A stretch of 60,549 bases of DNA from Perkinsus olseni (lineage: Eukaryota). The stretch is from the NCBI GenBank assembly GCA_013115125.1, contig JABANN010000023.1:62001-122549 (forward strand), given 5' to 3'. The number at the start of each line of letters is the position of its first letter. Position 1 is the stretch's first letter. A program made the position numbers and the translations under genes. Below, piece by piece: positions 9,304 through 51,832 of the stretch. The notes beneath the pieces are model-generated. The model did no database searches and was not told where the DNA came from. It worked only from the letters and a program-made list of their open reading frames with translations.

Positions 9304-11790
9304 ATGATACCGGGCATCCCTCCACCTTTGCCACCGAAGGCCCCGGCAGGTAGGGACGGCTGCTGTGTATCACTAGTAACTATCCAACAGGTGCCTCCAC
9401 AGGGCCGGTGCTGCCCCCTCCCGCCCCTCCTGTCCCGATGCCCCCTCCCCTAACAGGTAGTATCCCTCGGCCGCCGTTATGTTGTAGCCAGCTTCGCTCC
9501 GCCTTTTTTTAGCCGCTCCGGGTACGTTACTGATGCCACCGGTCCCCATGGGAGTGCCACCGCCACCGATGCCGCCCTCGGGAGATGCTACCCGTGTGCT
9601 TGCAGCCCCGACCACCAGTCAACAGCAGCTGGTGACTCCTGCGCAGATGGGCTGGTGTGAGGTAGTAACGGCGAAGTGGTTTGGGATCTGGCCACTTGGA
9701 CGTGCAGGTGCAAACCTCAGACGGTAGAGTATATTATTTTCACCCAACTACAAAGGAGTCCACCTGGGACAAGCCAAAGGACCTTCAGTCGGAGGCGGAG
9801 AAGGCGAACGACACCGAATGGAAGGCAAGTTGTTGTTTTGGGGGAGGGGACACTGACAGCCTCTTCTCAGGAGTACCACATCTGGGATGGGCGGTCCTTC
9901 TTCTACAACCCTCGGACGTACGTATCGTGTTGGGAAGTGCCGCCGGAAGTGCGGAAATCTCGAGCAGCGCTGCTAGGTACGAAGGGTGATTGTCGCACGA
10001 CCATGATAATCGTCCGTGACGTTAGGGAAGGGTTCACCCGAGTGTCTTCCTGGGGGAGGTTTGTGCTGTTCACGATGGTCTTTAATAATTTATGTTTTTC
10101 GTATTGTCCTTTTGACGCCGCGTCTCAGGCGGGGACCATGCTTCGGATACGGGTATGACGGAGGAGGGGAGTGTGGTGGAGGAAGTTGGTGGCGAGACGG
10201 TTGGCCAGCAGAAGGCGAATAAGACAGAGAGCGAGAAGAGAGCCGACTTCCGGCAAATGCTCATAGACAACGGAGTGGACGCCACGTGGAAGTGGGGTCA
10301 AGTGGCAGATCTAGCCAAGAAGGACATGAGGTTGGGGTTGTTCCCCTCTGTCGTTCTAGTGGCACCTTTACTCGGTGGTCAGGTACCACGCCCTGCCGAC
10401 TATGGGGGAGAAGAAGCAAGTCTTTGCGGAGTACCTTCTGCACGCTCGACGACTTGCTCAACAGAAAGAGGTGAGAATATCGTCAGCGTCAACGAGGTCG
10501 ATTCCTGTAGTTGTTTTTGCCGTCTATCGTACGACCACTGCGACGACCTCTGAATGTCGGTATGGATTATTCAACATCGTCTGAATGTCTGAATAATCTA
10601 TGCCGGACATTACCCGTAATGTCGCCCTCGAGGTTAGAAGGGGGATATCTTACCTCCTGGATGCTTTCCTGGTCTGCTCACTAAGCCTTCGTAACGAAAA
10701 AAGCGGCCCAGCTCGGCACGAAGACTTGGGCTCGAACCCCAGCTCGGGCTTTTTCCGTATTCTTAGGGTTCATCTACAACGGTCCACGACGGTTTTGCTT
10801 GGTAGAGCCGGGATGAGAGCGATTTCGTATTTTTTATAGGATACACAACCCGCGAGCTTTCGAATGGTATGTGTCTCGCGAGTTCAATCGACATAGTCGT
10901 GGAGAAGTAATTTGAACGAACGAACGAACGCACAACAAAGCGCAGAAGTGACCGTATATGCTCCGCTCACTTCGCTCGCTCCGCAACTTGGTGTGATGTA
11001 GTACAGTAGACGGCAGCCTCGTCGGCGGTGTCTTCATCCCGATTATTGTTGATCCTTTCAGCGCGACGATAAACGTGAAATGATGTATGAGATGGTGAAG
11101 GCGTTGCAGCAATGGAGTGGTATGGCTGAGGACACAAGGTAGACCAGCGGAAGCGAATAGGGGAAACTTCAGTCTGGGCAGGTATGATCAGCTGGCTGCC
11201 GACTCCGAGATGGCTGGCCAAGAGTGGTGGGGCAAGTTGACCGAGAAGGAGAGGATGACCCTCTTCGAGGCCTTCGCTGATGACTACTGTAGCGGATAGG
11301 GTGATGGAAGGCTGGGTTGACGGATTTATGGTAGGCGAAATCCAGAAGAAGAACAGGCAGGCTCGTGATGAGCGGAACATGCAGCAGTTGAAGAAGGCGT
11401 TGAAGGGAAGCCAGAGCGTTACCTACGATATGAGGTGGGGGCTCTTCTACTGGGAAGTCGATCATTCAGTCGTACCTTAGTATCGCCGACCTGGAAGGGC
11501 TGAAGGAGATCTCGTCTCTTGACTGCTGGCAACAACTACAATCGAACCAGCGGGTCACGGTGTGGCGGACGTGTGCGGCGGCCGAGACGCGGCGGTTGAA
11601 GAATATGGTCGAAACTGGTAAGGGGGTGTGAGGAGGGTTGCGGAATCACCATGTCGATGCAGGTGCGAGTACATACTCCCATAAAGAGCGCAAACTGCGG
11701 AAGGACAGGGAGATCGCGGGCTACTTGACCGGACCAAGTCCACAGGTCGATGGTGGCACAAGAAAAGTTGGAGAGAAGTCGAAGCGATAA
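9304..11790 (+). CDS. PRP40: Prp40-like splicing factor (Pro-rich N-terminus, two WW domains, FF domains)
   Basis: WW1 WCEVQTSDGRVYYFHPTTKESTWDKP; WW2 WKEYHIWDGRSFFYNPRTYVSCWEVP; FF domain FRQMLIDNGVDATWKW...RYHALPTMGEKKQVFAEY. 3' end approximate. Confidence 0.85.
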
Positions 11791-15139: not shown

Positions 15140-15630
15140 GTACTTTATTCGAATCAGAACCCGGCAACCGGGGGAGTGCTTTCGAAGCGAGTAAGGGGGC
15201 AGCGACGGCAGCGAGTGATGGGTCACGGGAGGCGGACGAGAGTCGTGTAAGGGCTACAAGGCCTCTTTCACTAGCTCGGCATTTACGTTAAAACAGTAAA
15301 AAAAAACCTTAGAACACTGGTAAGATCGTTCCGCTAAAGGGATGAGAAGCGGTGAGTTCACTTGAGTCCTTTAGACCGCCCCGCGAGATCAATCCAGTCT
15401 AATGGGAATCCCATTATGGGATGATAAAATCCCTGCACTGACCTATAAGAACGTGGTTACGAGCAGGATTAGCTGATGATAGTGGTGCCAACATGATCTG
15501 GTTAACAAGGTCATGAAAGCCTACAATGGCACCGCTCATGCAACTACCGGTAGGATTCCTGTGACGATGCAGCCCACAATGGAGTCCGCTGAGTGGTTCA
15601 GGTTAGTGGCCACCGAGAGCTTCATACCAT
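15140..15630 (+). mobile_element. Decayed LTR-retrotransposon integrase remnant
   Basis: After removing a 14-nt scar, RPARSIQSNGMIKSLH*PIRTWLR resembles the rve PQSNG..ER.HR motif. KVMKAYNGTAHATTGRIP resembles the post-core AYN..H.TTG..P motif. Stops and frameshifts are present. Confidence 0.55.
15401..15422. repeat. 22-nt inverted-triplication scar (inferred target aatgggat)
   Basis: aatggga|atcccatt|atgggat = ABCDEFG|revcomp(ABCDEFGH)|BCDEFGH, exact. Confidence 0.9.
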
Positions 15631-15644
15631 GATGAGGTTACATG

Positions 15645-15689
15645 CTTCAGATAATTGTAGATGCGAATCGCATCTACGATTATCTGAAG
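15645..15689. repeat. Long palindrome, 22-bp arms, 1-nt spacer
   Basis: cttcagataattgtagatgcga-a-tcgcatctacgattatctgaag, with one mismatch at a CpG position. Confidence 0.9.
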
Positions 15690-16745
15690 GCGTGGTACAA
15701 TTATCTTCACGAAAACTCCTTCCGTCACAATTTCTTCGAGTGTGGTTGCCCCAACCGTAGACCGAAACGAGTGGCGAGGATCTAAAGAAAGCTAGCGCGC
15801 GCGGAAAGAGAAAACCAGGACGAAGTGGAGTACTCATCGTAACCCCCCGTCAGCCAGGAACCCGGCCCAGGTCGCCCTCCGGGCGACCATCACCCCAGGG
15901 GAGAAGGCCTAGCGTTATAGGAAATAGATTATCCGAGGGTTGGAAGTGTAGTCCCGGCCCGGGACTTGCCAGTGGAAGTGGCTCTGGATATAGTGTGGTA
16001 CGCGAGTCTCTCGTACACAATTTCCTCTGTCGTCGAGAGGAGAAATTGTGTTGAAAAGGAGAAAACTGTGGCAGAAGGAAGAGAATTGTGAGAGAAAAGA
16101 GAATTTAGGGGCAAGAGTGGCGTAGTGTAGGCACAGTCTTATATGTGCCACTCAGTTGCTGTTATGTGTTGTTGGCCGGTGGCACGCGTAGGCAACATTT
16201 GTAGGCAGCAGCGTTATCCCTATCGATCGATCGAGTTATACTCATTTTTGTGGGCTCTTGTCTTGTCCACACTGCGGGAACGGCCATCGAACTACAGAAC
16301 ACCGCCTTCGTCAGATCCTGTCGACCTTTGCGACCCCAGTTGGGTGCCGTGCCTTGCCCCATCTCGGAGGTTTTATCGATCAAAAAAGCTCGACAGGATC
16401 TTCGTGCCGCGCAAGGGTTCAGATTTACGCACAACAGCTATCCCAAGCCGTCTACTACATCTCAAGATCACGAGTAGTCCGAACTCAACATCTTACTCCT
16501 CGTCGTTCTTGAGGTTACTCTCCTTATACTTGAAGCTGAGTGACCCTTGAAACGTGCTTACGGGTTCATCAAGCTCGTGAGGTGAGGTTCCTAATCTTAG
16601 AAACCATCGTCGTGAGGGGTTAGTGAGCGAGGCCATATTGTGCGGAAAGGGCAATATCTGATCGCACGCAGGCATCCTCCTCCGGGAAGACTCCTCCCCT
16701 CCGACGTCGCCTAAACTTGTCCTCGTTGACGACTACGAGCGGAAT

Positions 16746-17224
16746 ATGATTATCGTGGCTTTATTGATGTTCACGGAACTGCTGGAATCCAGCAGCTGGA
16801 TTGTCGTCTCCTCCTGGTCCTTGGATTGGATGTCCTTCCCCTTGGTCTGTACCAAGGTTGGGATGACGGCTACGGCTTCTACTGCAAGATGAATATTAGG
16901 AAATCGACAGATTTGGAAATAGTGGCCGATGTCGAGATCAGTCGCGGCTTTAATAAGGCAAAATGCGTTGATTGCTACTTCGTGTATGGGGTCTGGACAG
17001 AGACCGGTGAGAGGAGTCATGCTGAGGTACATGTTGCTGGTCTGCTGGACTCCGAAGACGTCTCAAAGCCACCCGACGATCCCACCAGTGTCTGCCTGGC
17101 TCAGCTCAGTGAAGTACTCGGAATTGGTTCTAAGTGCCTCTGGTCAGGGTACCCAAAGAATGGTCGTATGATCTTCAAACTCTGCGACACTAGGTTCGAG
17201 CTATTACACTTTAGTCGTCAATAG
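16746..17224 (+). pseudogene. Frameshifted secreted Cys-containing protein, copy 1
   Basis: Signal-peptide-like MIIVALLMFTELL is out of frame with LDVLPLGLYQGWDD...KNGRMIFKLCD. Removing a 14-nt insertion restores one ORF. Paralog of 22702-23150. Confidence 0.7.
16780..16801. repeat. 22-nt inverted-triplication scar (inferred target tgctggat)
   Basis: tgctgga|atccagca|gctggat, exact. The paralog at ~22736 has the single unexpanded tgctggat. Confidence 0.92.
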
Positions 17225-17969
17225 TCTTGCCAATAATTCTGAGCTGTTCTTCATCTGACCGTTGCAGAGCTCTCCGTGTCAACTCCAAACTTCAGGAATT
17301 TTTCATTAGATTTTTATTAATGTTCTCATTTTCATAAAAATTGATCTCTCGGACACATTCTGTCCCGTGTGGTGAAGATTCTGTGTTCCATGCCAGTGGC
17401 TCGTCCGCTGTGGATGACACACATCATTGCCCTTGGGTCTTGCCAGTGGAAAAATACCTATCCAGTCCAATCATTTCAGAGGTTTCGGTGAAGTTCTGCG
17501 TCTTTGGTTAATCGTCATTTCGTCCAAAATAGATGATTCACACCACCACCACACCTTGCGAAAATCGGAGATGCTGCCTGGTCAGCAGCGTTGACTGATG
17601 AGCATGTTGTTTTGGCTCGGGATGGACCATAGAGACAACCACCAGCTAGGGCTTCAGATAGGCTAACCGTCTACCGCGGTAATCACCAGCGTTGCTCAGC
17701 AATGCACCAGGCTGGACCAGCCTGTCAGGTAGTCGGCGCCTTCACTCAATCGCACGCATCCTTATGCATTCGCACCCAGAAGGTGATGAGCGCTGGATAT
17801 CAAGGGTGAAAGAAGCAATCTAGCGGAAGCTCGAGATAGTGTTATCCATAAAACGTTGTAGCGCTGCTAGCTCGCGACACAACTTCATGTCGCTCGAGGC
17901 AGTCATGGGATACCAGCTTTCTTGAATCCCCCCACAGGCTCGCCTTTGTTCTCTCAGTGACTTGTACAC

Positions 17970-17991
17970 CTGTCTAGTAGACAGTGTCTAC
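17970..17991. repeat. 22-nt inverted-triplication scar (inferred target ctgtctac)
   Basis: ctgtcta|gtagacag|tgtctac, exact. Confidence 0.9.
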
Positions 17992-18102
17992 TGTACAACG
18001 CTTGCCTCATTTAAACTCGGACGCGGGAATTCCACGGCAGAACGAAGGGTTGGAAAATTCCGCTTGATATGAGCAATGTGAACTCCTGCACCGTAAGGTA
18101 TA

Positions 18103-18124
18103 CCGGTGACTCACCGGCGGTGAG
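18103..18124. repeat. 22-nt inverted-triplication scar (inferred target ccggtgag)
   Basis: ccggtga|ctcaccgg|cggtgag, exact. Confidence 0.9.
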
Positions 18125-18796
18125 GGAAATGCCGCGAAGCAGAAGGCAGCCCCGGGCAGATATCCAATCTCACTCGCTGTTGATGCTCCGCCGATGAGAA
18201 TTACTGTCGTCGAGTGGATGACGATGCCTTGGAGGAATTAACACTTTGTTGCCCTTACACGCGTTTGGTCATCGAAGTCGAACTTGAGACTCAGTGCTTA
18301 CCATCGCACGTCAGTCTGGGTCCGTTATTAGTGCTCAATCTACCACATGCTCCTCATGAACACAATTCGTCTTCCGGTCTAGACAATCTAGGTATCGGTG
18401 AAAAACGCCTCCTCCGTGTTCATACCGTATCGTTGCGATAGTATCGTAAAATTGAGAGGATGCAGAAGTTGATGAACTTTCCAGCAGAGCGTTTGCAATC
18501 ATGCGACGTCGTGATCTAAGATGATAATAATAATCTGATATCTTAAGAGGGGGCAAGCCCGAGATGCTCCGAAGAGAACCGAACAGCGGCTTCTGCGTGA
18601 GCATAACGGGAATGCAAACATACGAAATGTTTATACATGTTACAGATGCTTGGCTCGAGACTCGAGTAGAACAACTAAATTATTATGGACCTGGCAGTTG
18701 CCAGTAGACGAGGAATCGTTCATGAAACGATGAAAGCACTTGACGGAGACAAAACAAATGACGGTCTCAGACCACCGGTCTCCTCACCGCAGAGCA

Positions 18797-20512
18797 TCAA
18801 GCACTGATACCATCTAGATCTTGAACAGCTGATTCAACAGTCGTTTCATTCTTAGGCTTCCCGTCTCTTGTAAGAAGCCTTTTCCTCTGCAGCCGTCTTT
18901 CCCACGGAGATCCGGCCGTAGCCGAAGTATCGTCGCCTTCTGCCATGATACGCTCATTCATCCTAGCATCAGGTATGAGCCACAAAAAGAGGAGCGACGT
19001 CGTGCTGAGAACAATGAAAATCAGCGATACAATCCATAGGTTGTCGAAGGTGTGAGACTCATCGGCACCGGGTAGACCTCGAGGGGTGACTCCGAAGGGC
19101 TGGCTTATATAACCGGAGATGGGAGGAGTAACGTCATGACTACAATTCGATAAAGACGCCAACAGAGCAAACATAGTAGCCTCCATGTTCTTGGGGCACA
19201 AGTGAGAGAGAATGAGGAATCCTGGCATGAACTGTATCATGGATACCGCAGTAACCAGCGCGGTGCTGCCGACAGCAAAGACATGATCCGGGATGCCGAT
19301 CCGGACGTTGAGCCGTGAAAAGATGATCCGATCACCTAGCTGCATAACAACCAGCATCAGGGTCATCGTCCAATACACCGTACGATACTTCCAGGATTTC
19401 ATGAACTTGCCGAAAGCGAAGACCGCAAGGACAGAACACAGCTGCCCGGCTGTCCCCATGACCGAGCCGTAAAAGATATCGGAGAAATGAGGCCCCGTCG
19501 GGTACTGCTGCTCGTCGTTGGTGAAGAAATAGAGAGATGGGCCACCAACGGATATCATGGTTACTTCTAAAATGGTTCCGAAGAGCATCAGCTTGCCAAT
19601 GACCGGTCGCATTACGGCGAACGCGAACCCAGTAAGGAGTATAACGGTTGAGATTGCGGTCACAAAGGCGACCGTATTCGACTGCGCGGCCAAGGTGAGG
19701 ACAGAATAACCGACGGCAGTTACACCGATCACAACGGAGAGAATGATAATCGGCTTCTCCTTGCTCCAGAGCTGCTGGCGACGAGCTTTGGCTTCTTCTC
19801 TGGCAACAGGACATTCCTCAAAAAAGTTTAACCATGTGGGTATTACGACCGTCGACGAAGTGAAGACCGTAGTAAGTATCGCCCACTGTGAGCCTCCCAG
19901 CCCCCAAATGCCATCAGCGTATTCGACAATGAAGCCGACTAGGGGCGTGGCAAGTAGTCCAAGTAGTTGGTTGCCGGCCCAGACGTAACTGACCAGAGCT
20001 GGTCCTGACTCGGGGACGCCCGCTAGGCGTCGAGAGTACACAGCCTCGGCAAGCAGGTCATACCCCATGAGCTGAATGTCAGCCAAAAATAACCCAACCG
20101 CCCCAGTGGAGGCATTACTATCAACCAGGTTGAGGGATATCACCAGGATCGTACCGCCGAGACCGAGGATGCTCATAATCATCATATAAGGGAGCTTGTG
20201 GTAGCCGAGTATTGGGAATGAGTCGGAGACCACCCCTAACCAGGGTTTCATCGCCCAAGGCATGTCAATGACAGAGACGAAACGGTCTATGTCGGGCCCG
20301 GGTACATTCATAGCTCTAAAGTAGAACCGAGCACTTGAAGCAAGCATCGAAGAACTGTAGCCCTTGGCCCAGTGGATGGTGAAATGCAACATGAGGACAA
20401 GCCTACATCCATAGACCCTGCACAGCATCGTAATGGCCCCGATAATGGGGAGCTTCTTCAGGGAGGACCCTTGAGTTGCCGAGGCCCGAGAAAGAACGGG
20501 GGACTGGGGCAT
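18797..20512 (-). CDS. BT1-family folate/biopterin transporter (MFS), single exon
   Basis: Uninterrupted 571-aa ORF with many TM helices and BT1 motifs MPWAMKPWLGVVSDSFPILGYHKLPY, LCPKNMEATMFALLASLSN and FDNLW. Confidence 0.92.
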   Translation of the reverse strand: MPQSPVLSRASATQGSSLKKLPIIGAITMLCRVYGCRLVLMLHFTIHWAKGYSSSMLASSARFYFRAMNVPGPDIDRFVSVIDMPWAMKPWLGVVSDSFPILGYHKLPYMMIMSILGLGGTILVISLNLVDSNASTGAVGLFLADIQLMGYDLLAEAVYSRRLAGVPESGPALVSYVWAGNQLLGLLATPLVGFIVEYADGIWGLGGSQWAILTTVFTSSTVVIPTWLNFFEECPVAREEAKARRQQLWSKEKPIIILSVVIGVTAVGYSVLTLAAQSNTVAFVTAISTVILLTGFAFAVMRPVIGKLMLFGTILEVTMISVGGPSLYFFTNDEQQYPTGPHFSDIFYGSVMGTAGQLCSVLAVFAFGKFMKSWKYRTVYWTMTLMLVVMQLGDRIIFSRLNVRIGIPDHVFAVGSTALVTAVSMIQFMPGFLILSHLCPKNMEATMFALLASLSNCSHDVTPPISGYISQPFGVTPRGLPGADESHTFDNLWIVSLIFIVLSTTSLLFLWLIPDARMNERIMAEGDDTSATAGSPWERRLQRKRLLTRDGKPKNETTVESAVQDLDGISA

Positions 20513-21129
20513 AGTCGAGAAAAATAGTCAATAACAACACCTGGGCCGAACGCCTACGGCGCCGGGCGGCAGCGAATAATCGACAGACTCAAATCATTGA
20601 CCCTCTTTTGGAAACATATGCAGACTCAGTGGGCGATTCACTTGATGAAAGACGCATTTCCTCTACGTATTCGGCCAAGTCAGGACTTAGCTATAGGACA
20701 CAGCAGAACCATGTGGAGCTAAGGAGGAAAGAGAGCTAAAGCGCGACCTTGGGCGTGAAAGTATGCACTCAGGTACTTGTCTTCACATGATGCGACCGCA
20801 GCTGCTCCGACAGCCAGGCTGATGGTGTCCATTGCTCATTCTCAGTGTACATGGCGCAGCTTCGAATTCAAGTTCTAAGACCAGCTACGAGTGGCTTCGT
20901 GAGGCCCGGAAGTTGGGTGCAAGACAGAGAGGTGTAGTGAGTCCTGTGTTTGCGTGCAGGTGCGTAGCTCGTATAGCCACAGATTCTGTTCTACAGATGC
21001 GACAGCGCAACTTGATGATACCATTCTCTTAGTCCTTGGCCTGGTCCCGAAGCAGCTGGAGGATTGAGAACTCTATGTGACAGCGTCTGAGGTGGACTTA
21101 CTTTGCTTAACCCATGAGAGCAAGCGCCG

Positions 21130-21151: not shown

Positions 21152-21489
21152 TACTCATTCGCTAATCACTCGAACGAGCACTGACCGCTGAGGATACTCG
21201 GATAACCCTCGCTCGCGAGGGAAGTGTGTAGACCATTCGGCGCTTTAGAGAACGCCTCTGGGAGCGGTCGAAGGCAAGTTGAGGTCCTGGATCTTTGCGG
21301 TCTACGTTCAGGTCTACTGTCAGACATTGACCGATGCCCTGCTCATTGCCCCGGTAACCGCTGCGCTAAACGATCGGATTCGTTCGTACCCTCGCGGCGT
21401 CACTCCAGGAGACATGATAGAGTTGAAGCCTTCAACTCGAAGGCTAAAGGGAGCACGAATGGCCTTGTGACTCCTCCCCCTCCGAGTTT

Positions 21490-22335
21490 AGCGTGAGCGA
21501 GCGTGAGAGACCATCACTTCCGTGTAGAGTAAGTATCGACGAACTGAACAAAACACTGAACTCTGGAGAAAACACAATCGTGCGTTTCTTTCTGAGATCA
21601 CATCGACTACGTGTGAGGTATTTTGCAATTGTGAACTCTCTACAGCAATGTTAGAACGTGTGCAAGCAATGTCAAGGGCAAAAAACAGGCCAGACGGACT
21701 TGAGAAAGTCTGCCGGGTCAGGAGACGCTCGGAGTCGACGAAACCACCCTTGAATGAGCGATCTGAAGCAGTTATAGACGAGAAGGGTCCGAAGAGCAGG
21801 ATCAGGGTACTGTGCCTTACTCTGCTGGCGTGTAGTACGGCAGCTTCATCAACACCACTGCAGCGATCTGCAGGAGCTCTTCCGGTGGATGATGTCCCTC
21901 CTCGAGGAGCTGCTTCAAACCGTTATACTCAACGAACGTTCGAGCCAGAGCTGCTGATCGCTGAACGATGAGACTCAGGGTTGACAGCGCTAGAGGGGAC
22001 CTCGAAGCAAGTAGAGCCTAAAACATCCAGCTCCGCAACATAACTCGAGAGGCACCCAGAAAACCATGAAAAGTAGCGAGTGATGGGAAGACTGCACAAA
22101 ACTCACTGATTGGATGGGTTGCCAGTCAGCCTCGATGGACTCCTCGATCTTCCTGTCATTTGGCGGTGCCAGCCGGAGGATTAGGGATAACAGTGCGAGG
22201 CTTGGGTAGCTCAAACCTGACGGTACCCCTGCATGAGCCGCAGTCGGAGAGGGGTCGACCCACCTTTAGCGGCGGAACTCTTGCCAAGGACCTCCCGAAA
22301 TACGTAGAGCAAAGGCCCTTCGAGCACTGTGTGAA
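21490..22335 (-). pseudogene. Diverged partial duplicate of the 3' end and downstream flank of the large gene (source ~24210-25106)
   Basis: Collinear similarity, e.g. ctctggagaaaacacaatcgt, gtctgccgggtcaggagacgctcggagtcgacgaaacca and gccagccggaggattagggataacagtgcgaggctt occur in both places. Introns are retained. Confidence 0.9.
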
Positions 22336-22348
22336 CTGTGTGGGCCTC

Positions 22349-22490
22349 CAGGCGGAGACCATGCTTCGGATACGGGTATGACGGAGAAGGGGAGTGTTGT
22401 GGAGGAAGTTGGTGGCGAGACGATTGGCCAGCAGAAGGCGAATAAGACAGAGCGAGAAGAGGGCCGACTTCCGGCAAATGCTCATAGACA
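22349..22490 (+). pseudogene. Displaced copy of a Prp40 exon fragment (source 10126-10269)
   Basis: Near-identical cag-gcgg.gaccatgcttcggatacgggtatgacgga...cggcaaatgctcatagaca with a few substitutions and a 2-nt deletion. Confidence 0.92.
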
Positions 22491-22701
22491 TCGAATTCGA
22501 ACCTTCACACCGGGAGAGTACTTTTCGAACGATTAAAGGGGGCAGCGGCAGCAGCTCGCTGCGGTGATGGATAGAAGCAGGTGAGCGAGAGTCGTGAAAG
22601 GGCGTCTTGTGCGGAAAGGGACAGCAGCTCATGGCACACAACCCTTCTTCTTTCTTCCACGGTTGCCTAGACTCAACCTTGTAGACAACTACGAGTAGAT
22701 T

Positions 22702-23150
22702 ATGACTATCAAAGCTCCGCTGGTGTTGATAACACTGCTGGATTGTGGTCTCCTCCTCTGCTCGGAGCGGATGTGCTTCCCGTTGGTCTGTACGCAAGTT
22801 GGGATGACGATAACCGCTTCTTCTGCAAGACGGACATTAGAAAATCGACAGAAATGGAAATAGTGGCCGATGTTGATATCAGTCACGGCTGGAATGGAGC
22901 GAAATGCGTTAATTGCCGCTTCGAGTACGGCGTCTGGACAGAGACCGGTGATAGGAGTGGTCGTGACGAGGCACATGTGGCTGCTCTGCTAGGCTCCGAT
23001 GGGGTCTCGGGGCCCCCCAACGATTCCACGAGTGCCTGCCTGGCTGAGCTCGGTGAAAGAGTCGGGATTGGCTACGATTGCCACTGGCAAGCGTATCCGA
23101 AAAATGGTCGTATGATCTTCAAACTCTGTGACGCTATGCCTTCCGAATGA
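22702..23150 (+). pseudogene. Frameshifted secreted Cys-containing protein, copy 2
   Basis: MTIKAPLVLITLLDCGLLL is out of frame with GADVLPVGLYASWDD...KNGRMIFKLCD because of a 1-nt deletion relative to copy 1. Confidence 0.65.
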
Positions 23151-24433
23151 CCATTATGACTCAAAAACGTCTTGAAGTCAATAAGACAATTCACAGCTAA
23201 AACTCGCCGGAAGAGTAAGCTTGGGAAAAGACTCCATCTCTTCGTTCTGACCTCGGATTACTTATGATTAACAACAGAGCAACAATAGGTGTCCAGAGCT
23301 GAGGTGGATGCGTGTTTGCATGCGCAACAGCCAAGCGTGCTAGCGACCCGTCCGTCATCAGCGAACGGCCGATGTTATACGTCGGAGTCGTCATCTCATT
23401 CGCTCCCGCCTTTGATAAGAGTAGTTTAGGTGGGTCACTTCTGGTGACTCCAGTGATTCGCACTGCGAGTGCAACAGAAGGTTCATCTGGCAGGAGTCCT
23501 GTCCGTGAAGATCTCCCAGCTTTCTCCTGCTGTGATGTTACCTACCACCCAGCTAGCGGGCCCTCAGAGAAGGCGCGATGTAAAGCTGGACTCCCATGCG
23601 GAAGACCACACAGCCGGCACCTGGTCACCGATCAAGGACCACCGAATCGTCAGTATTGATCGCATTGCGAGAGTACATAGCTCGCTCAGCATACTGCAGG
23701 GCCTGCTACCTCCGCGAAGCTGCTACCCACCGTACCAAGATGAGGCTCCCAAGAATTTCGTGGAGAGAGCTCGCCGTTGGTGAACCATTACCGACCTCTG
23801 CTCTGCCTGGAGCCCCTTCACCTTGAGAAGTCGGCTAAGGGCTAGCTCATCTCTAAGGAGAACAAGTCGTCGAGCGGCAATGCGAGCTAGTTCCACGTGG
23901 GCAGGGGTTAATCCTGCGGCGATGACTAGTGCAGAGTTGGAGGCATCGCGAGGCTCGAAGAGCTATCCGCGCCACCATAGCAGGCACTCACATCACCAGA
24001 TCCCTGGCTCTGGCAGACTCAAGGCCGTTCTACCACACGCACACAGCGTGCACTAGGCCAGACAGGATACCCACCCGATATTATCGTGCCGGTAAGCGCG
24101 AATGACTTTGACACCAGCGATGGCAGCACGCTCCCATCCCAAGTGTCGCAGTCGATTCAACTACTTACGTGGACACGACAGTTGAAGGCCACGGAGAGCC
24201 CTTCCGAGCGAAGCGTGAGCGAGCCAGCCACCATTAATTGCTCTCCCGAAAAGTATAAAGTTAGTATTGACTAACTAAATAGAACACTGGGCTCTGGAGA
24301 AAACACAATCGTACGTGATTATTTCTGCTTCCGTCGGTATGACCAACAAGACTACATCGACTACGTTTGAGTGGGGGGGGGCAATTATGAACTCTCTACA
24401 GCAATGTTAGATCGGTAACGTGTGCAGGCATTT

Positions 24434-27400
24434 TCAAGGGCATAAATCAGGCCATACAGATTTGAGGAAGTCTGCCGGGTCAGGAGACGCTCGGAGTCGA
24501 CGAAACCAACCTTGAATGAGAGACCTGAAGTAGTGATGGACGTGTTCGGCCCTAGAGAATGGGTTATGAAGGCAGCGTGCTAGGACTCACTCTGCTGGGG
24601 TGTAGTACGGCAGCTTCATCATAACGACTGCAGCGATCTGTAGGAGCTCTTCTGGTGGGTGATGTCCCCCCTCGAGGAGCTGCTTCAACCCGTTGTACTC
24701 AACAAACGTTCGAGCTAATGCTGCTGATCGCTGGACGAGGAGGCTCAGAGTTGACAGCGCCAGAGGAGACTTCGAAGCCAGCAGGGCCTGAAGCATCCTA
24801 CTCTCCTCCATAACTCGAGCGCCCGCCACGGAAACACGTAGATTCGCGAGTGATGAAAAGACTGCACGAGACTCACTGATTGAATCGGCTGCCAGTCGGC
24901 CTCGATCGACTCCTCGATGTTCCTGTCATTTGGTGGTGCCAGCCGGAGGATTAGGGATAACAGTGCGAGGCTTAGGTAGCTCAAACCTGACAATACCCCT
25001 GCATGAGCCGCAGTCGGGGCCAAACAAGACCTACCTTTAGCGGTGGGACTTTTGCCGAGGACCTCCCGAAATACGTAAAGCAGGGGGCCATCGAGTACAG
25101 TGTGAAGCAGATCTTCACATGACGTAGAGCTCAATCGTAGGAGCAGAATCAAACACACTGTGAGTCTGAAGAGAGGCGATTCCCCAACCATGGAGAGAGA
25201 AGTCCTTACGCGTGCTCTATGACGGAGTCCGATAGCTCCCGCAGCTTCAAAGGCGTGCATGCCTTGAGGAAACCTCTGAGCCACTCTGCCGCAACGACTC
25301 CTGAAAATGGGCAGACTAAGTGGGACCGCATCGATCCGATCGATGCACGGCGATCGAACTTTGAGCGGAGGCTCACCTGAGGAGGAGGCAGACTGCCGAG
25401 CGACTTGCCCATCTGCTCCGAGGGCCGAAGCAATACTGACAGTTGTGGATCGTGCATACAGGAGAGACATGAGCCGTGAGACGACCTGAGATCATGATAC
25501 GAAGATACCATCGCACAGTGTCTTGTCGTCCCCCTCCTCACCGGGAAGATGTAGGGTGACCTGTTGGGTCCCCCTTCGGCAACCAGAGACAGAGCCGCCT
25601 CTGCCAGGACATGCAGGGTTGGCTCTGCCGATGACGCTGGTAGGTACGTAACGGCAGTGTTGAGGAACTGAGGAAAACGGATGCTACCCGAGGGCAATTT
25701 CAACAGGTGAGTCTCACTCGAACAATGGCAGTTTGCAATTGATCAGCTCCTAGCAAGACCGACTGCCGCGTATTCTGCCCTGAGAGGAGCGCCAAGGCAG
25801 GCCGGTACATCTCCCGTGACGACAGTGCCTGAGAGGAGAGAGCAGTCCAGAATCGATGGCAAAGGACGGAGAGGACGGTACCTTGACACCCCTGAGGAGC
25901 GGGGGCTCCACCTCCTCCCCAGCACGCGGAACCTCAATCTTGAATTCTCGAATGACGTTGACGAGGTATCGCTCCGGGTCGCACATGCCACCCGGAAGAC
26001 GGTCCGTTTCAATAGCCGAGCGTAGACACTCGACCAGCGGGGCCTGGAACTGTTCTGGAATCTCGGGGGCCTGCGAGCGAGGAGAACAGTGAGCCAGCTC
26101 CGAAGCAGACACGGAGGCTCACCTCGAAGACCTTGGCCTCGTAAAGTAGCCGTCCCATCAGCGAAAGGAGCAATGGCTGCTTATCCCTCCGGCTGAGCCC
26201 CGAGAGGAACGTGGCTGCGACGTCCCGGAAGACCTCAACGTTCGAGTTGCCTCCACAATGGGAAAGCTCGGCAGCCAGCACTTCAAGCAGCCTTGCCGCG
26301 AAGACCGGGTCATCGCCCTCCAGGGCCAGACGCAGAGTGTCGTAGCGAGTGGACCATGCAAAGGAGATGTACCGTAGAATGGCCCCTTTGAGGGCGTCCT
26401 TGCCAGACGACAGGAACCCTCCTACACACTCGACCAAGTAGCTGTAGAGAGCACTGGCTTCGGTGGAGGATGAGGCAGGGGGAGGGTTGTCGAGCAGGAA
26501 GAAGAGCGCATCCAGACCGGACAGCTCCCCGGACGACGTGTCCGCTATGTGCTCCTCACCGCCAGTCAGGAAGAGCAGGGCCAGGTCAGGACCACATCTA
26601 TTCAACGTGCTCAGTGCCAACCAACGGGAAGCATCGTTGCTCAGCTTGCCGAATCGCTGCAGCCGGCTAGGACTCCACCTCACGCAGCGATCGACGTAGC
26701 GTACCGAGCCCTCACCACTGGGAACGACCGGACGCTGATCGACTTGACGGGCCACCTCCCGAAGAAGTAGTAGCCGAGAGAGGTCGTGCCGCGCATCGTA
26801 ACGACAGAGACTAGTGATGCAGCACACAGGCAGTAGAGAGTCATACCGCAGAACCTCGCCAGCAGCATCGTAGACAGATCCCGTTCCCGAAGAGAGAAGG
26901 ATCCTGCCCAGAGCCAGAGAGGCCTGCCGCGGCATTGACGGGTGGAGGGCAAAGATGGCCCTTATCGCTTGGGGTGCTCGGGCACACATGGTGGACAGGA
27001 TTGCCAGGCCCGCCCTACTGCTAGCCTGACGACTCTGCAGCAGGTGCGCGATCAATGGCACACCATCGGGCGTCTTGGCGAGCTCTACTTGCTTGTGGGC
27101 CGGTACACAGTTCGGGACATTCCGAGGGTCGCGCTCCAGGCAGGCGGCGATGAGCTCAACTGCCGTCTCTGACAAGGCCGTATCTTTGGAAGTGATAGCT
27201 GCAGCGACTTGACCGAAGACCGGTGATTCTAGAGTGAGCAGGCATTGTGTGGAGTAGACGAATGCTTCCGAGTCTTGGGTGGGGGCGAGGATCATCCGCA
27301 GGAGCCATCTCATAGACAGGAGACTGACATCATCGGACAACTTGCCGCCGAAGAGAAGTCGATTCACCTGGACACAGCGAGCTCAGTCTCAGGATCCCAA

Positions 27401-36725: not shown

Positions 36726-37652
36726 CTACTCGAAGTAGCATCCAAATACCATGGCCGTGCCCAACAGGAAGCGCTGAGAAGAAGGAAGGAGGACGAATGA
36801 ACTCAACCGAACGTTGGAATCTCAATACAATCAATGACAAGTTGTCATCGGACGATCGTAGTTGTCAATGACAACTACGATCGACTTCTCAACCTTTGTG
36901 GTAGGAGATATTCTAGTTAACACCCCTGTGCCCCTATGGATATCGACAGAAGAGATTATCTATGGCTTTCAGTCACAGTAGGAAGCACTTCGACCAACAA
37001 TACAACCACTACTAGTTGTATCGAGTAAGTTTAGTAGTAGAACGATGGACGCAACGTCACGCGAGTGTATGTGGCCAACGGAGCGATCAACACGCCCCTC
37101 CCCAAGGTGGTGGTATTACACTTTGGTACGTGTATGATGCCCAGTTGTCCGTAGACTCGTCCCACAGTCCTTTACTACACACTCTTATACCCTGACCCTC
37201 ATTCTTGGATATTAAAACTTGAACCTAATGAGCAGACAAACTCCCCACCATTTATGCAATAAATTCAGTAGATGCCGTGACCAGGAATCGAACCTGAGAC
37301 CTACCATGATCTTATGTCTAGGTATGTTACACTCTTCCCTAACGCCATCCTTAATCTCCGCACACAGCTCCAACACCCACTGCTTGGTCTCCTCTTCACT
37401 CACATACTCCTCTACAGCCACGCAGCAATGGCCGTACGCCAGTCACCCGAAGGACTCACGATCCTCGAGCTTCGCCTTCATCGCACGCTCACATATCGCT
37501 TTAACCTTATTCGGTATGAACCTACAAGACGAAACCCGCACAGGTTCGATTCCCCCCTCCTCCTGCTAGTACCGTTCATTCTCCTTAGGCTCCATGATGT
37601 AGGTGTTCTCCCACTCATATGTTTGCTTCATACCAGGAGGAAGGGCGTCCAT
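36726..37652 (-). CDS. Tctex-1 family dynein light chain (TCTEX1D2/DYNLT2B-like)
   Basis: WENTYIMEP, IPRHKIMVQV, GQGIRVCSKGLWDESTDNWASY, and final exon RFLLGTAMVFGCYFE*. Confidence 0.88.
36834..36883. repeat. Paired 1-nt-spacer palindromes in the last Tctex intron
   Basis: atgacaa-g-ttgtcat followed by cgatcgtagttgtca-a-tgacaactacgatcg (15-bp arms), both centred on tgacaa. Confidence 0.85.
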
Positions 37653-44760: not shown

Positions 44761-45773
44761 CCAGGTCGAGCCACTTCGCTGAGCCTGTCCGGAGGAAGTA
44801 CTCCTGTTCTCCCCACGACACCCGACTTGGAGGTTCGTCAAGTGCATCATCATGTACATTACCATCATGGCTTGGACGCAGAGACACTCGAGTTATCCGC
44901 GGAAGAGAGACTACGGATTGAGTAGGGGGGCTGACGTACGACGGGAGGCGATTCATGGCCCTGCAGGATTGAATCTGAGGCTGCGATCATTGGCGACGAA
45001 TGCAGGACACGACCCGTCGCGAAGGAGGACTACTTGGTACCGCTCCCGCGGCAGGACATGGTGAAGGCCGAGGCCCCATAGTTTGTGATAGGGGAATTTT
45101 CAGGCCCGCGCGAAAAAGTTGAAGAAATTTTTCAAGAGTACACAGGATGCTTTCGCAACGTAAGGTATCATATCTCCTTCGCGTTGACTGGCCAGCTCGA
45201 TTGGCTATTCTCTAGCGCGACAGGTACTCCTTTGGAGCCTTGCCGCACAGGCGCAGGCCGCCCTTGTGAGGTTGAGCCGTCATGTTCCGAGTCTTTGTCG
45301 GCGCGGTTGTACCTTGCGTTAAGTAATGTTGCACTCGAGACCAATAAAGTATTCATCGACAGGCCGGCGGCGAGTATCCATTGTGAGACCGCTCGCCTGT
45401 GGTAAGCAGTACTGCGAGTGCGATGTTATATGAGATAATGAGTACTTAGTGATGGTGATGAGTAATGTGGGGCTCATCAAACTGTCTCGTTTTACTGGCT
45501 AGTCGTCAGCAGCCTCATCGTCATGCAGATGACACGGTCAGTGGATCTATGAGAGATCGTCTCTCCTCTAGGCTCAATTGTCTTATGTGCGCTTCCAGAG
45601 TAGATCTTGAGTGTCACAGAGTTTATCGAGCATCCGCATCACGCTGGGCAGGCTGCTCCTTTCGAGTTGGAAGTCCCAAGGGCATGTTCTATTCAATCGG
45701 GGGCTCAGTTCAGCGGATAAACGAGCAACTTATCTATATTAAAATCCGCGCGGAGAATGTTATGTGTTCGCGC

Positions 45774-46039
45774 GCGTACGCACGAATCTCGCTCGCCCAT
45801 TATTCGCTGCATGAAACGGTTGCAGCCCATCGGCTGCAATGGATAGAAGAAGAAGGTTTAATTCCCATTATACTCAATCCTATGTCCATCCCAGGTGTTG
45901 TTGATTCGCATGCGTACGCACGAATCTCGCTCGCCCATTATTCGCTGCATGAAACGGTTGCAGCCCATCGGCTGAAATGGATAGAAGAAGAAGGTTTAAT
46001 TCCCATTATACTCAATCCTATGTCCATCCCAGGTGTTGT
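45774..46039. repeat. Direct tandem duplication, 138-bp period
   Basis: gcgtacgcacgaatctcgctcgccc...cccaggtgttgt begins at 45774 and again at 45912, nearly identical. Confidence 0.93.
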
Positions 46040-46143
46040 CGAGTCAACCAGTGCGGGTGTTACTACTAACATTATGCCATGTTGTACGTACAACGGGACA
46101 GCTCGTGTCCCGCTTGTGCCTCCCACGGATTAAAATCATTTTC

Positions 46144-46374
46144 CTAAGGAGAATGTCATTTTCCTAAGGAAGAAATCTCGCTCGCCCTCGACACTTTTCT
46201 AAGGAGACTTTGCACTTTTCTAAGGAGACTTTGCACCTTCCTAAGGAGGTTTTGCACCTTCCTAAGGAGATTTTGCTTTTAGTCGCTGTCTTGTGCGCGC
46301 GCGTGCGGCACGACGCGGCGGCGTATTTTCGGGCGAGCGAGATTTCTTCCTTAGGAAAATAACATTCTCCTTAG
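46144..46374. mobile_element. MITE-like element with 44-bp inverted repeats and internal ~21-bp tandem repeats
   Basis: 46144-46187 and 46331-46374 are reverse complements with one mismatch. Internal cac(t/c)tt(t/c)ctaaggag.(c/t)tttg units occur about four times. No clear TSD. Confidence 0.7.
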
Positions 46375-47342
46375 ATTTCTGCAATTCACCGCCTCCCACG
46401 CCGGCAGGCTAGTGCTCTGAGTCCGACCTCGAGTCCTCGATAAAGGTTGGAGTAGACGGGCGTCCTCCTCCCGACGTCCTCCTTTCATCTGAGGTCTTCG
46501 AGAGGTAGCTTGTGCCTGCGGACTTCGTAGTGCGGAGCCGCGATCTGTGCCCTTTGTGGTATCGTCTCCGGCCACGGTATAGTTTGCCTTCGCGTTACTC
46601 TCGCTGCCATCGTGAGGTCTTGTCGATGTTACCGACGCCAGTGGGGTGTCGCGCCTCCGGAATCAATGCAATTCAAGCTTGTCGCCAGGCGTTACAACCT
46701 CCACAAAAATGATGCGCTGTTCTTGCAAATTGCACGAATCGATCTTCGCGAACACCCGACGCAAGTGCGTACGTGCGGTCCTCCGAAGGGAACTAACGGG
46801 CCTTGGTCAACTCGTTGAAGAGCTGGTTTGCGAACATAGAATCGAATTGTGGCTGGGACTGTACGCCGTGAGTTTGTGCCGGCTCATGGCGGCCTTAGAC
46901 AGACCCTTGGGATGCCTTTGCAGCAACTGTGGAGATCGGGCTCGTGAGATGAGGACACTTGGGATGCTCGAGGGTTCACTCGGCCAGTCGTCAGTATGAA
47001 TGGTAAGCCGTTTGCTTGTAGCTCTTCACCTCCTGCTTGGGCCCGTCTCTACGAAGCACGTTATGGGATGTACCAGCAGCCGTCGTCGCGCTGGTGACTC
47101 AGTCGTAGACCCGGATTTAAGACCTTTGTCTGCAAGGGCTACGAAGCAGGGTCTTGCTTGTTCTTCTCCGTGCGAGCAAGGCTCAGCTTCTACGGGTAGT
47201 CAGGCACTCCATCACGGTAAGCCCGAGGCGTTCACGTTTCTCAGGTTTACCCTTGACGCCTCGGCCAGAGTCTCGCCATCAGTTGGCTCACGGAAGGCTA
47301 CTTACTTGGAGGTAAGATTGGATTTCTTGCTCTTCAAGCAGC

Positions 47343-47422
47343 CTCACTAATAGTGAAAAAGGCAGAAAGGGCGATCGAGCATCTCATAGTGAGTCACTAT
47401 GAGATGCTCGATCGACCTTTCT
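47343..47422. repeat. Double-hairpin scar with perfect 21-bp-arm palindrome (inferred target ctcactat)
   Basis: ctcacta-a-tagtga at 47343-47356, then cgatcgagcatctcatagtga-g-tcactatgagatgctcgatcg at 47372-47414, extended by agaaagg/cctttct. Confidence 0.92.
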
Positions 47423-48891
47423 TTTGTGAGACTCGGAAGTCGTTGATGATGTTGCTGAGCATTGTCCGTGAAGGTCACCGATCGAGCCCCATTCTGCACG
47501 CCGAAACCGACGGAGCGACGGGCCGACCAGACCCCGGCGTGTGAAACATCGTGGACATCACCCAACCTTTCCGAAACGGCAAAGTAATGTCGGGGTTAAT
47601 CCTTGGGTGGGGCCCATCTCGAAGATGCTGTGATCATCAGGCCCGGGTGATCATAGCAAAAGACCTTCGCCGACGTACAAGTCGAGTGACCAAGTGGAGT
47701 ACAACAGAGTCGAGCGCAGGTTGCGCAGTAGCAGGAGGATGCCAAGGTGGTTCAGCTGTGTATGCGCTGTTTCACGATACCCAATGCAGGACGGCCCGCC
47801 ATCCGGGCGAGCCGGTTCACAGCAAGAGCTCTCATGACTTTGCCGCCCACGCTCCTGCCGGCTACTGCGACTCGCCAACGGCATGTCGACGCCAATAGAA
47901 CTTTTCACCCTCCACAGCTGTCGTCCGGATTTCTCTGCTCGGCAACAACCCGTCTACTTTCATCACCCTGGGTGAGGGAAGCTCTACGCCTGCTGTGAAA
48001 TCATGGCTTCCTCGGCGTCCACATCAGGTCCATTTTAATGGGAAGATGGGTCATAGGCACGTCCTGTTGATGCACACGTAAGCTACTGCTGCTGCTGCTG
48101 CTGCGGTTGCATTCCTGTGTGAACCACGGGCTGAAAAAGCTGGTGGCTTCGTCCACTGTATACTATTATATTCCGTTCGGGTGGCACCCGGCTGGGGCGA
48201 CTTCTGTGGCACCCTTAGAGTGCCGACCTAGCGTTTACTTTTTCCGCCGTGCATCGTCGTTGTTCGGAACTACTAGCATCCGACTACATTGTGCTCCTGA
48301 GCGCACTCGTATGTGAGGGAAGATCGGCCACGAAGTCCCCTGTGGTGTGTCTGTGACGCAGTTGCAACTTCGTTCTGGCTTTGGCCTGATATTGTGGTAT
48401 GATCGAGCATTACCATTGTCTTTCTTCTGGGCTGTGACCCAGACAGCTCAACCTTGCCGTTCAGCAGGAAGGCAGCCGGTGGTCTCGTTTCATTATTCTC
48501 CTTGCGTGATTGAGTTCGTCCATCCAGAGTATTCACGCGACTTACAAAGTGTCATTGGTAACGCCTCCTTGCGCTGAGTAGAATCGCCGGTGTCGTAGCA
48601 TCTATAGCATTGCCGCACTCGATGGGTTTGCAAGGTGGGGCTGATAAGCTGCTGATTTGTTCGACCTGCTGCATCCGCGGACTCGTAGCTTGAAGCGTAT
48701 TGTGCAGTCGCCCTGGAGAAGGCTCGGCTCTCGTTGCCCCGGGTCAAACCATGCGTCCGCTGTACCAGTGAGGGTCCCTGCGATAGCCTCTCGAACGCGC
48801 AGTAGAGCGGAACACTTGACGAAGGTTCATAGGCAGCGACCGAGTCACATTCAGTCCGCTAACCGCACAAAGTTGAGTATTATTCCCGCCA

Positions 48892-51536: not shown

Positions 51537-51571
51537 CGAGTTCACTCGGGTGGTAGCCAGGAAAGCCCAGA

Positions 51572-51832
51572 CCTCAGACGCAATGCTGCTGTCTCCTACA
51601 CAGCAGTTACGGAGCCGCCAGCCTCAGACGCAATGCTGCTGTCTCCTACACAGCAGTTACGGAGCCGCCAGCCTCAGACGCAATGCTGCTGTCTCNNNNN
51701 NNNNNNNNNNNNNNNNNNNNNNNNNNNNNNNNNNNNNNNNNNNNNNNNNNNNNNNNNNNNNNNNNNNNNNNNNNNNNNNNNNNNNNNNNNNNNNCCTACA
51801 CAGCAGTTACGGAGCCGCCAGCCTCAGACGCA
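51572..51832. repeat. 50-bp tandem repeat array spanning an assembly gap
   Basis: Unit cctcagacgcaatgctgctgtctcctacacagcagttacggagccgccag starts at 51572, 51622 and 51672 and resumes after the N run (51696-51794). Confidence 0.95.

Follow-up and report, generated by a model that had tools for sequence, protein, structure and literature searches.

The second intron of an expressed Perkinsus olseni gene was found to carry an 80-base double palindrome (positions 47343-47422), and inspection of the sequence showed that both of its parts are built on the same 8-mer, ctcactat. Most probably, with a likelihood that we put at about 0.8, this structure is the donor-site footprint of a departed cut-and-paste transposon that used hAT-type chemistry; as such, it is another example of a footprint kind that is already known. 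The transposon and its superfamily, the sequence of steps and the enzyme responsible for opening the hairpins are all things that we infer from what was left behind. We favor this reading because the anatomy of the locus matches the model base by base, because palindrome pairs recur in the window with an 8-bp unit, only odd palindromes (those with a 1-nt center) are enriched and the targets are hAT-like, and because a sibling scar at 16780-16801 has an unscarred paralogous site. The window is the whole stretch of 60,549 nucleotides that was analyzed (contig JABANN010000023.1, positions 62,001 to 122,549 of the forward strand). It is eukaryotic and carries Pfam-matched frames together with short GT..AG introns; its Pfam matches comprise a BT1 transporter, importin-alpha parts, WW/FF, LITAF, ankyrin and a RanBP zinc finger.

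The coordinates of the locus and of its relatives in the window are collected in Table 1. The repeat finder delineated a long right palindrome with 29-nt arms (47364-47392 and 47394-47422) that are 97% complementary around a 1-nt center; the inner 21 nt of the arms pair perfectly, and the sole mismatch opposes G at 47371 to A at 47415. This agrees with the sequence-only reading, which had described a right palindrome of 21 perfect base pairs extendable to about 29. The left palindrome had been drawn as ctcacta-a-tagtga; its layout and center hold, but the paired bases number six and not seven (tcacta-a-tagtga), since the first c, at 47343, is unpaired. The sequence tcacta is common to the left and right palindromes. 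The junction is bordered by two remnants of an 8-bp target duplication, ctcacta (47343-47349) and tcactat (47394-47400), while the full ctcactat is intact on the minus strand at 47386-47393. It had also been proposed that the two single-base centers are the complements of the lost terminal bases, and this is what the sequence contains: a stands for the lost t (compare 47400), and g stands for the lost c (compare 47343). The palindromic addition is asymmetric, 6 nt at the left end as opposed to 29 nt at the right, and the filler aaaaggc between the two ends is similar to the start of the right tract (aaaggg-c).

Table 1. Features of the double palindrome, its host intron and the sibling scars in the window.
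Feature	Position	Strand	Remarks or evidence
Host intron holding the scar, 162 nt, GT..AG	47312..47473	+	splice joints in X7, X8, X10
Left target copy, first seven bases ctcacta	47343..47349	+	eighth base lost
Left hairpin tip a	47350..47350	+	complement of lost t, cf. 47400
Left palindromic (P) addition tagtga, 6 nt	47351..47356	+	
Filler aaaaggc, 7 bases between both ends	47357..47363	+	part of neither palindrome
Right palindromic (P) addition, 29 nt	47364..47392	+	reverse complement of 47394-47422, one mismatch
Right hairpin tip g	47393..47393	+	complement of lost c, cf. 47343
Right target copy, last seven bases tcactat	47394..47400	+	
Original right flank, mirrored into the long tract	47401..47422	+	
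Sibling compact scar	15401..15422	+	pair census
Sibling compact scar	16780..16801	+	pair census, paralogue alignment
Sibling compact scar	17970..17991	+	pair census
Sibling compact scar	18103..18124	+	pair census
Sibling scar, right tract 15+15 nt (center A 36868), short left palindrome (center G 36841)	36834..36883	+	

The paired-palindrome structure is not due to chance. As single-stranded DNA, the segment 47343-47422 folds at -36.3 kcal/mol (z = -9.8), and none of 200 shuffled versions folded equally well. Moreover, the longest exact short-loop hairpin arm measures 21 nt here vs. a maximum of 11 nt in 20 Markov-1 simulations of the window. An assembly artefact is unlikely because contigs from two separate studies match the window exactly: in run X1, which is possibly the window's own source sample, a 5241-nt contig spans 46700-48100 with zero differences, and in run X7, from the other study, an unspliced 211-nt contig spans 47291-47501, again with zero differences.

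A census of exact palindromes with arms of at least 7 nt showed that the excess in the window depends on the size of the center. With a 1-nt loop, 21 palindromes were observed vs. 4.2 in simulations; the corresponding figures were 2 vs. 2.75 for loop 0, 3 vs. 4.15 for loop 2 and 7 vs. 4.75 for loop 4, and the 16 palindromes with loop 3 (3.15 simulated) are mostly loop-1 palindromes recounted with one pair fewer. The real enrichment, about five-fold, is confined to palindromes with a 1-nt center. Furthermore, we searched for pairs of such palindromes (arms of at least 4 nt, no more than 90 nt apart) that share a direct repeat, and compared their number with 50 simulations. The window holds 18 pairs, six of which imply an 8-bp target, where the simulated mean was 0.04; other implied targets were 7 bp in one pair (simulated 0.22), 6 bp in two (1.52) and 11 bp in one (none simulated). 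The six 8-bp pairs are the locus under study, the scar at 36834-36883 and four compact scars, each of which has the 8-mer in reverse complement between two runs of seven target bases. This compact form would be expected if two long 3' overhangs, derived from two hairpins on one duplicated target, had annealed to each other. The scar at 36834-36883, with the inferred target atgacaac, departs from the locus under study in one respect: its right center, at 36868, is the original base and not its complement.

Several further palindromes were observed in the course of the census. A third long odd palindrome lies at 15645-15689 (22+22 nt with one mismatch, center A at 15667) and has no partner; it may be a one-sided scar from which the other target copy has been deleted. 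The four compact 22-nt scars, together with several single odd palindromes, lie inside 2.7 kb (15400-18125), and this cluster, which may represent a local hot spot of insertion and excision, adjoins the BT1 transporter frame (18800-20527, minus strand). The hexamer CGATCG ends the exact arm in two of the three long palindromes (47372-47377 and 47409-47414; 36853-36858 and 36878-36883); it occurs 26 times in the window vs. 9-21 times in 10 simulations, and its position at the arm ends is possibly a coincidence.

The inferred targets resemble those of a hAT element. Hermes prefers the target nTnnnnAn (PMC10368747). The 8-mer ctcactat has T at position 2 and A at position 7, such that both half-sites fit; over the six inferred targets, 9 of 12 half-sites fit (binomial tail 2e-4), with T at position 2 absent in three of the six. 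Among the 21 odd palindromes, the center reads a-N-t in 11 (tail 0.005).

The window also offers a natural comparison for one of the sibling scars. Around 16780-16801 the sequence is paralogous to a segment at about 22640-23140, where a single tgctggat (22736-22743), the very 8-mer inferred for this scar, is kept and the sequence is exactly 14 nt shorter. The homology spans both sides of the scar: upstream, 53 of 81 bases are shared, and downstream, 85 of 104. Judging from this alignment, 22736-22743 is the unscarred site for the sibling scar at 16780-16801, not for the locus at 47343-47422. The remaining indels between the paralogous segments of the window, 6-23 nt in size, are not scar-like. 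The segments concerned form two pairs, 16600-17200 / 22540-23140 (about 71% identity) and 21470-22430 / 24200-25200 (about 78%), as counted over the aligned stretches.

According to the hAT-type model, an element would have inserted at ctcactat, thereby duplicating 8 bp. Upon excision, the transposase would have placed its nicks in the flanks, one base away from the element, and closed both flanks as hairpins, such that each target copy would lose its terminal base on one strand and the partner of that base at the tip would appear in the repaired strand as a complement. The opening of the left hairpin would then have been on the 3' side, 7 nt beyond the tip. On the right, the hairpin would have been cut at a distance of about 29 nt from its tip, in the strand with its 5' end toward the break; alternatively, a polymerase primed from the left end might have used this right hairpin as its template and passed round the tip. 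The break would have been closed by end joining, with 7 nt of filler and a net gain of 50 bases (47350-47399), and the single mismatch would stem from a later substitution or from a repair error. A complement in the center would indicate that the hairpin was cut 3' of the tip or that a polymerase copied round the tip, and an original base in the center that the hairpin was cut 5' of the tip; the right center at 36868 would fit the model only if that hairpin had been cut on the other side of the tip. The filler aaaaggc may, very tentatively, represent an abortive templated copy, the mismatch lying 8 nt from the start of the tract; for both the filler and the mismatch, the hAT model offers no more than ad hoc explanations.

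As for the enzyme that opened the hairpins, Mre11 with Sae2/CtIP makes incisions some 15-30 nt away from a blocked end, in the 5'-terminated strand, and an incision of this type would fit the tracts of 15, 22 and 29 nt found in the window. The asymmetric opening of the hairpins, which the sequence-only reading had put forward as the origin of the structure, gains support from the 8-bp target, the complement centers, the nTnnnnAn fit, the five sibling scars and the unequal additions of 6 vs. 29 nt. No intact element with an 8-bp duplication and inverted ends was detected in the window: a scan for exact 5-10 bp duplications with 12 of 14 matching inverted-end bases gave no match for 6-10 bp and two for 5 bp, with 0-1 matches at 8 bp in simulations. 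In addition, none of the 105 stop-to-stop frames of at least 110 aa in the window matched a transposase family in Pfam. Reports of hAT elements or of excision scars in Perkinsus were absent from the literature found, as judged by titles and the beginnings of abstracts.

Hermes makes the same nick one nucleotide outside the element and leaves a hairpin on the flank. Off-centre opening of a sealed hairpin also gives rise to palindromic additions in V(D)J recombination, where coding joints bear long P-nucleotide insertions when the opening of the hairpin is faulty; unlike the present scar, however, RAG hairpins lack the 1-nt offset, such that the palindromes are even, and the process is somatic rather than germline. 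A close parallel is provided by Ac/Ds, a hAT system followed in plants, Saccharomyces and Candida. The first nick by hAT transposases is placed one nucleotide beyond the element, and the flank is closed into a hairpin (PMC1978519, PMC4763223), and Ac/Ds footprints contain palindromic insertions centered on the complement of the base that adjoined the transposon end (PMC5873905). It is also described that both target copies are kept minus one base, that P-nucleotide tracts have a complement center and that the ends are joined by filler or microhomology (PMC5873905, PMC1978519), just as at 47343-47422. The present case differs in being a natural scar in a protist genome and not an experimental one, as well as in size: the arm of 29 nt, 21 nt of it perfect, exceeds the maximum of 20 nt given for Ac/Ds in yeast (PMC5873905), and the longest insertions reported for Candida are 3 nt (PMC5873905, PMC1978519). 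Hermes and Kat1 share with our scars the 8-bp target duplications and the nTnnnnAn preference, as well as the flank hairpin and the cut about 1 nt outside the element that result in odd palindromes (PMC10368747, PMC4763223). In contrast to these systems, the chemistry in Perkinsus is read from the scars only, with no transposase found in the window.

Other origins of the structure have to be weighed against the hAT-type footprint. We consider it improbable that the scar was left by another superfamily with 8-bp duplications or flank hairpins, that is, a Mutator-like, Merlin or P element, and neither Merlin nor P is known to us to use flank-hairpin chemistry. Such an origin gains some ground from the fact that no transposase was identified in the window, as well as from reports according to which MULEs form flank hairpins and duplicate 8-10 bp (PMC5499845), and Merlin elements duplicate 8-9 bp and have related ORFs in Perkinsus marinus (PMC8101967). 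For Muta1, which resembles our case in placing hairpins on flanking DNA and in its 8-9 bp duplications, a 43-bp flank yields a hairpin of 86 nt, so that a 1-nt offset is lacking, and precise excision accounts for more than 90% of events in yeast (PMC5499845). MULE chemistry without an offset would lead to even palindromes; in our window, the loop-0 class is at the simulated level, and it is the odd palindromes that are in excess. Besides, the duplication is exactly 8 bp in all six clear scars, and the target fits nTnnnnAn, both of which speak against the other superfamilies. The probability is somewhat lower still for a mutation without a transposon, in which template switching or fold-back (snap-back) priming would have repaired a stalled fork or a double-strand break. 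These processes do generate inverted duplications, the 7-nt filler looks like a stuttered templated copy, and there is no transposon present in the window. However, fold-back repair predicts neither a constant 8-bp unit (six pairs vs. 0.04 simulated) nor complement centers, an enrichment of loop 1 only or a T/A preference in the target, and one-base snap-back loops are probably disfavored sterically.

A hairpin maintained by selection in the intron, as a small-RNA precursor or splicing regulator, with the likeness to a scar being incidental or the scar having been co-opted, appears quite unlikely. It is true that the RNA of the intron folds at -71.4 kcal/mol (z = -7.4) with a stem of 28 pairs, that it lies inside a spliced transcript of high contig depth, that the hairpin is present in one unspliced contig of an RNA-type run (X7) and that Rfam returned weak, generic matches to miRNA precursors. 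Yet the five Rfam matches scored 20.6-25.9 bits vs. gathering scores of 64-150, the best reaching 25.9 vs. 150; the unspliced X7 contig may come from contaminating DNA; and the stem is fully explained by the scar model. We give the lowest probability to an assembly artefact or a miniature element of the foldback or MITE-like kind. The structure is indeed short and palindromic, but the 59-nt palindrome itself has no flanking duplication, and the same sequence in contigs of two runs from different studies argues against an artefact. Nor is it a repeat family within the window, because no second copy of the arm was found there at up to 8 mismatches.

The transcript that carries the scar was reconstructed from contigs of sequencing runs. 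A spliced plus-strand transcript covers 47020-48100, with contig depth up to 2025 (X8), and an unspliced X7 contig of lower depth extends from beyond 46700 on the upstream side into the first exon. The five plus-strand introns, with their cuts set at GT..AG, are 47196-47244, 47312-47473, 47584-47640, 47747-47789 and 47972-48027. The scar lies entirely within the second, which measures 162 nt vs. 43-57 nt for the other four and would be 112 nt long if 47350-47399 were subtracted. The sequence-only reading had named cruciforms or hairpin RNAs as possible products of the inverted duplication; what bears on this is that splicing removes the intron with the palindrome, and that an unspliced contig of the RNA-type run X7 includes it. 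Across X7, X8 and X10, the contigs of the spliced form had depths from 107 to 2025, and the unspliced X7 contig had a depth of 20.7. The longest spliced ORF of the transcript has 174 codons, from the ATG at 47063 to the stop at 47898, and is rich in Arg, Ser and Pro; the unspliced frames overlapping it gave no match in Pfam. At present, the intron seems to carry the scar as a tolerated passenger.

We also looked for other alleles of the locus, using contigs of four runs (X1, X7, X8 and X10) among the 20 listed, where X8 and X10 were picked as possible divergent strains on the basis of their low share of query words. Neither an unscarred nor an occupied allele of 47343-47422 was present in these four runs, every piece being identical to the window. 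Three of the four runs are RNA, spliced at the scar site, and X8 and X10 are uninformative on alleles because both contain spliced RNA that does not differ from the window. A 24-nt word of exon 3, used to scan metagenomes, gave 0 matches.

A single excision footprint is ordinary biology. What deserves attention here is the 29-nt tract, the intronic position in an expressed gene and how densely sibling scars lie around it: over 60 kb, the window has no fewer than six scars in paired form along with three long odd palindromes, and no element was seen in it. The scars are clean enough to display the excision chemistry, including the 8-bp target, the 1-nt offset and the side on which the hairpin was opened, without the transposon itself. 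Such scars could record past hAT activity and the host's repair of hairpins genome-wide in a parasite lineage. For the host gene, a scar of this kind represents one route by which an intron may grow by 50 bases in a single step, and one route to a 29-bp RNA hairpin in a spliced transcript.

A more far-reaching idea, to which we give only a small chance, is that the Perkinsus genome holds an unusually dense and legible record of hAT excision, that its long tracts reflect Mre11/CtIP-like cuts far from the tip and not Artemis-like ones, and that the new intronic hairpin RNAs might be subject to Dicer-like processing and so become small-RNA loci. If this were true, transposon excision would be a source of new small-RNA loci, with introns being lengthened and hairpin RNAs arising from scratch.

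Some other features of the window were recorded along with the scars. About 1 kb upstream of the double palindrome, the segment 46118-46400 has inverted repeats of 44 nt (46144-46187 / 46331-46374, 98% identical) around tandem ttcctaaggag-like units and is bordered by a 10-nt direct repeat, gcctcccacg (46118-46127 / 46391-46400); this could represent either a repeat-rich promoter or a MITE-like element. A segment of 144 nt is repeated with 95% identity at two distant sites (22349-22490 / 10126-10269). A tandem repeat of about 50 nt at 51567-51832 contains a 99-N assembly gap (51696-51794), and a tandem duplication of about 138 nt with 96% identity, at 45758-46039, lies within the frame 45462-46130.
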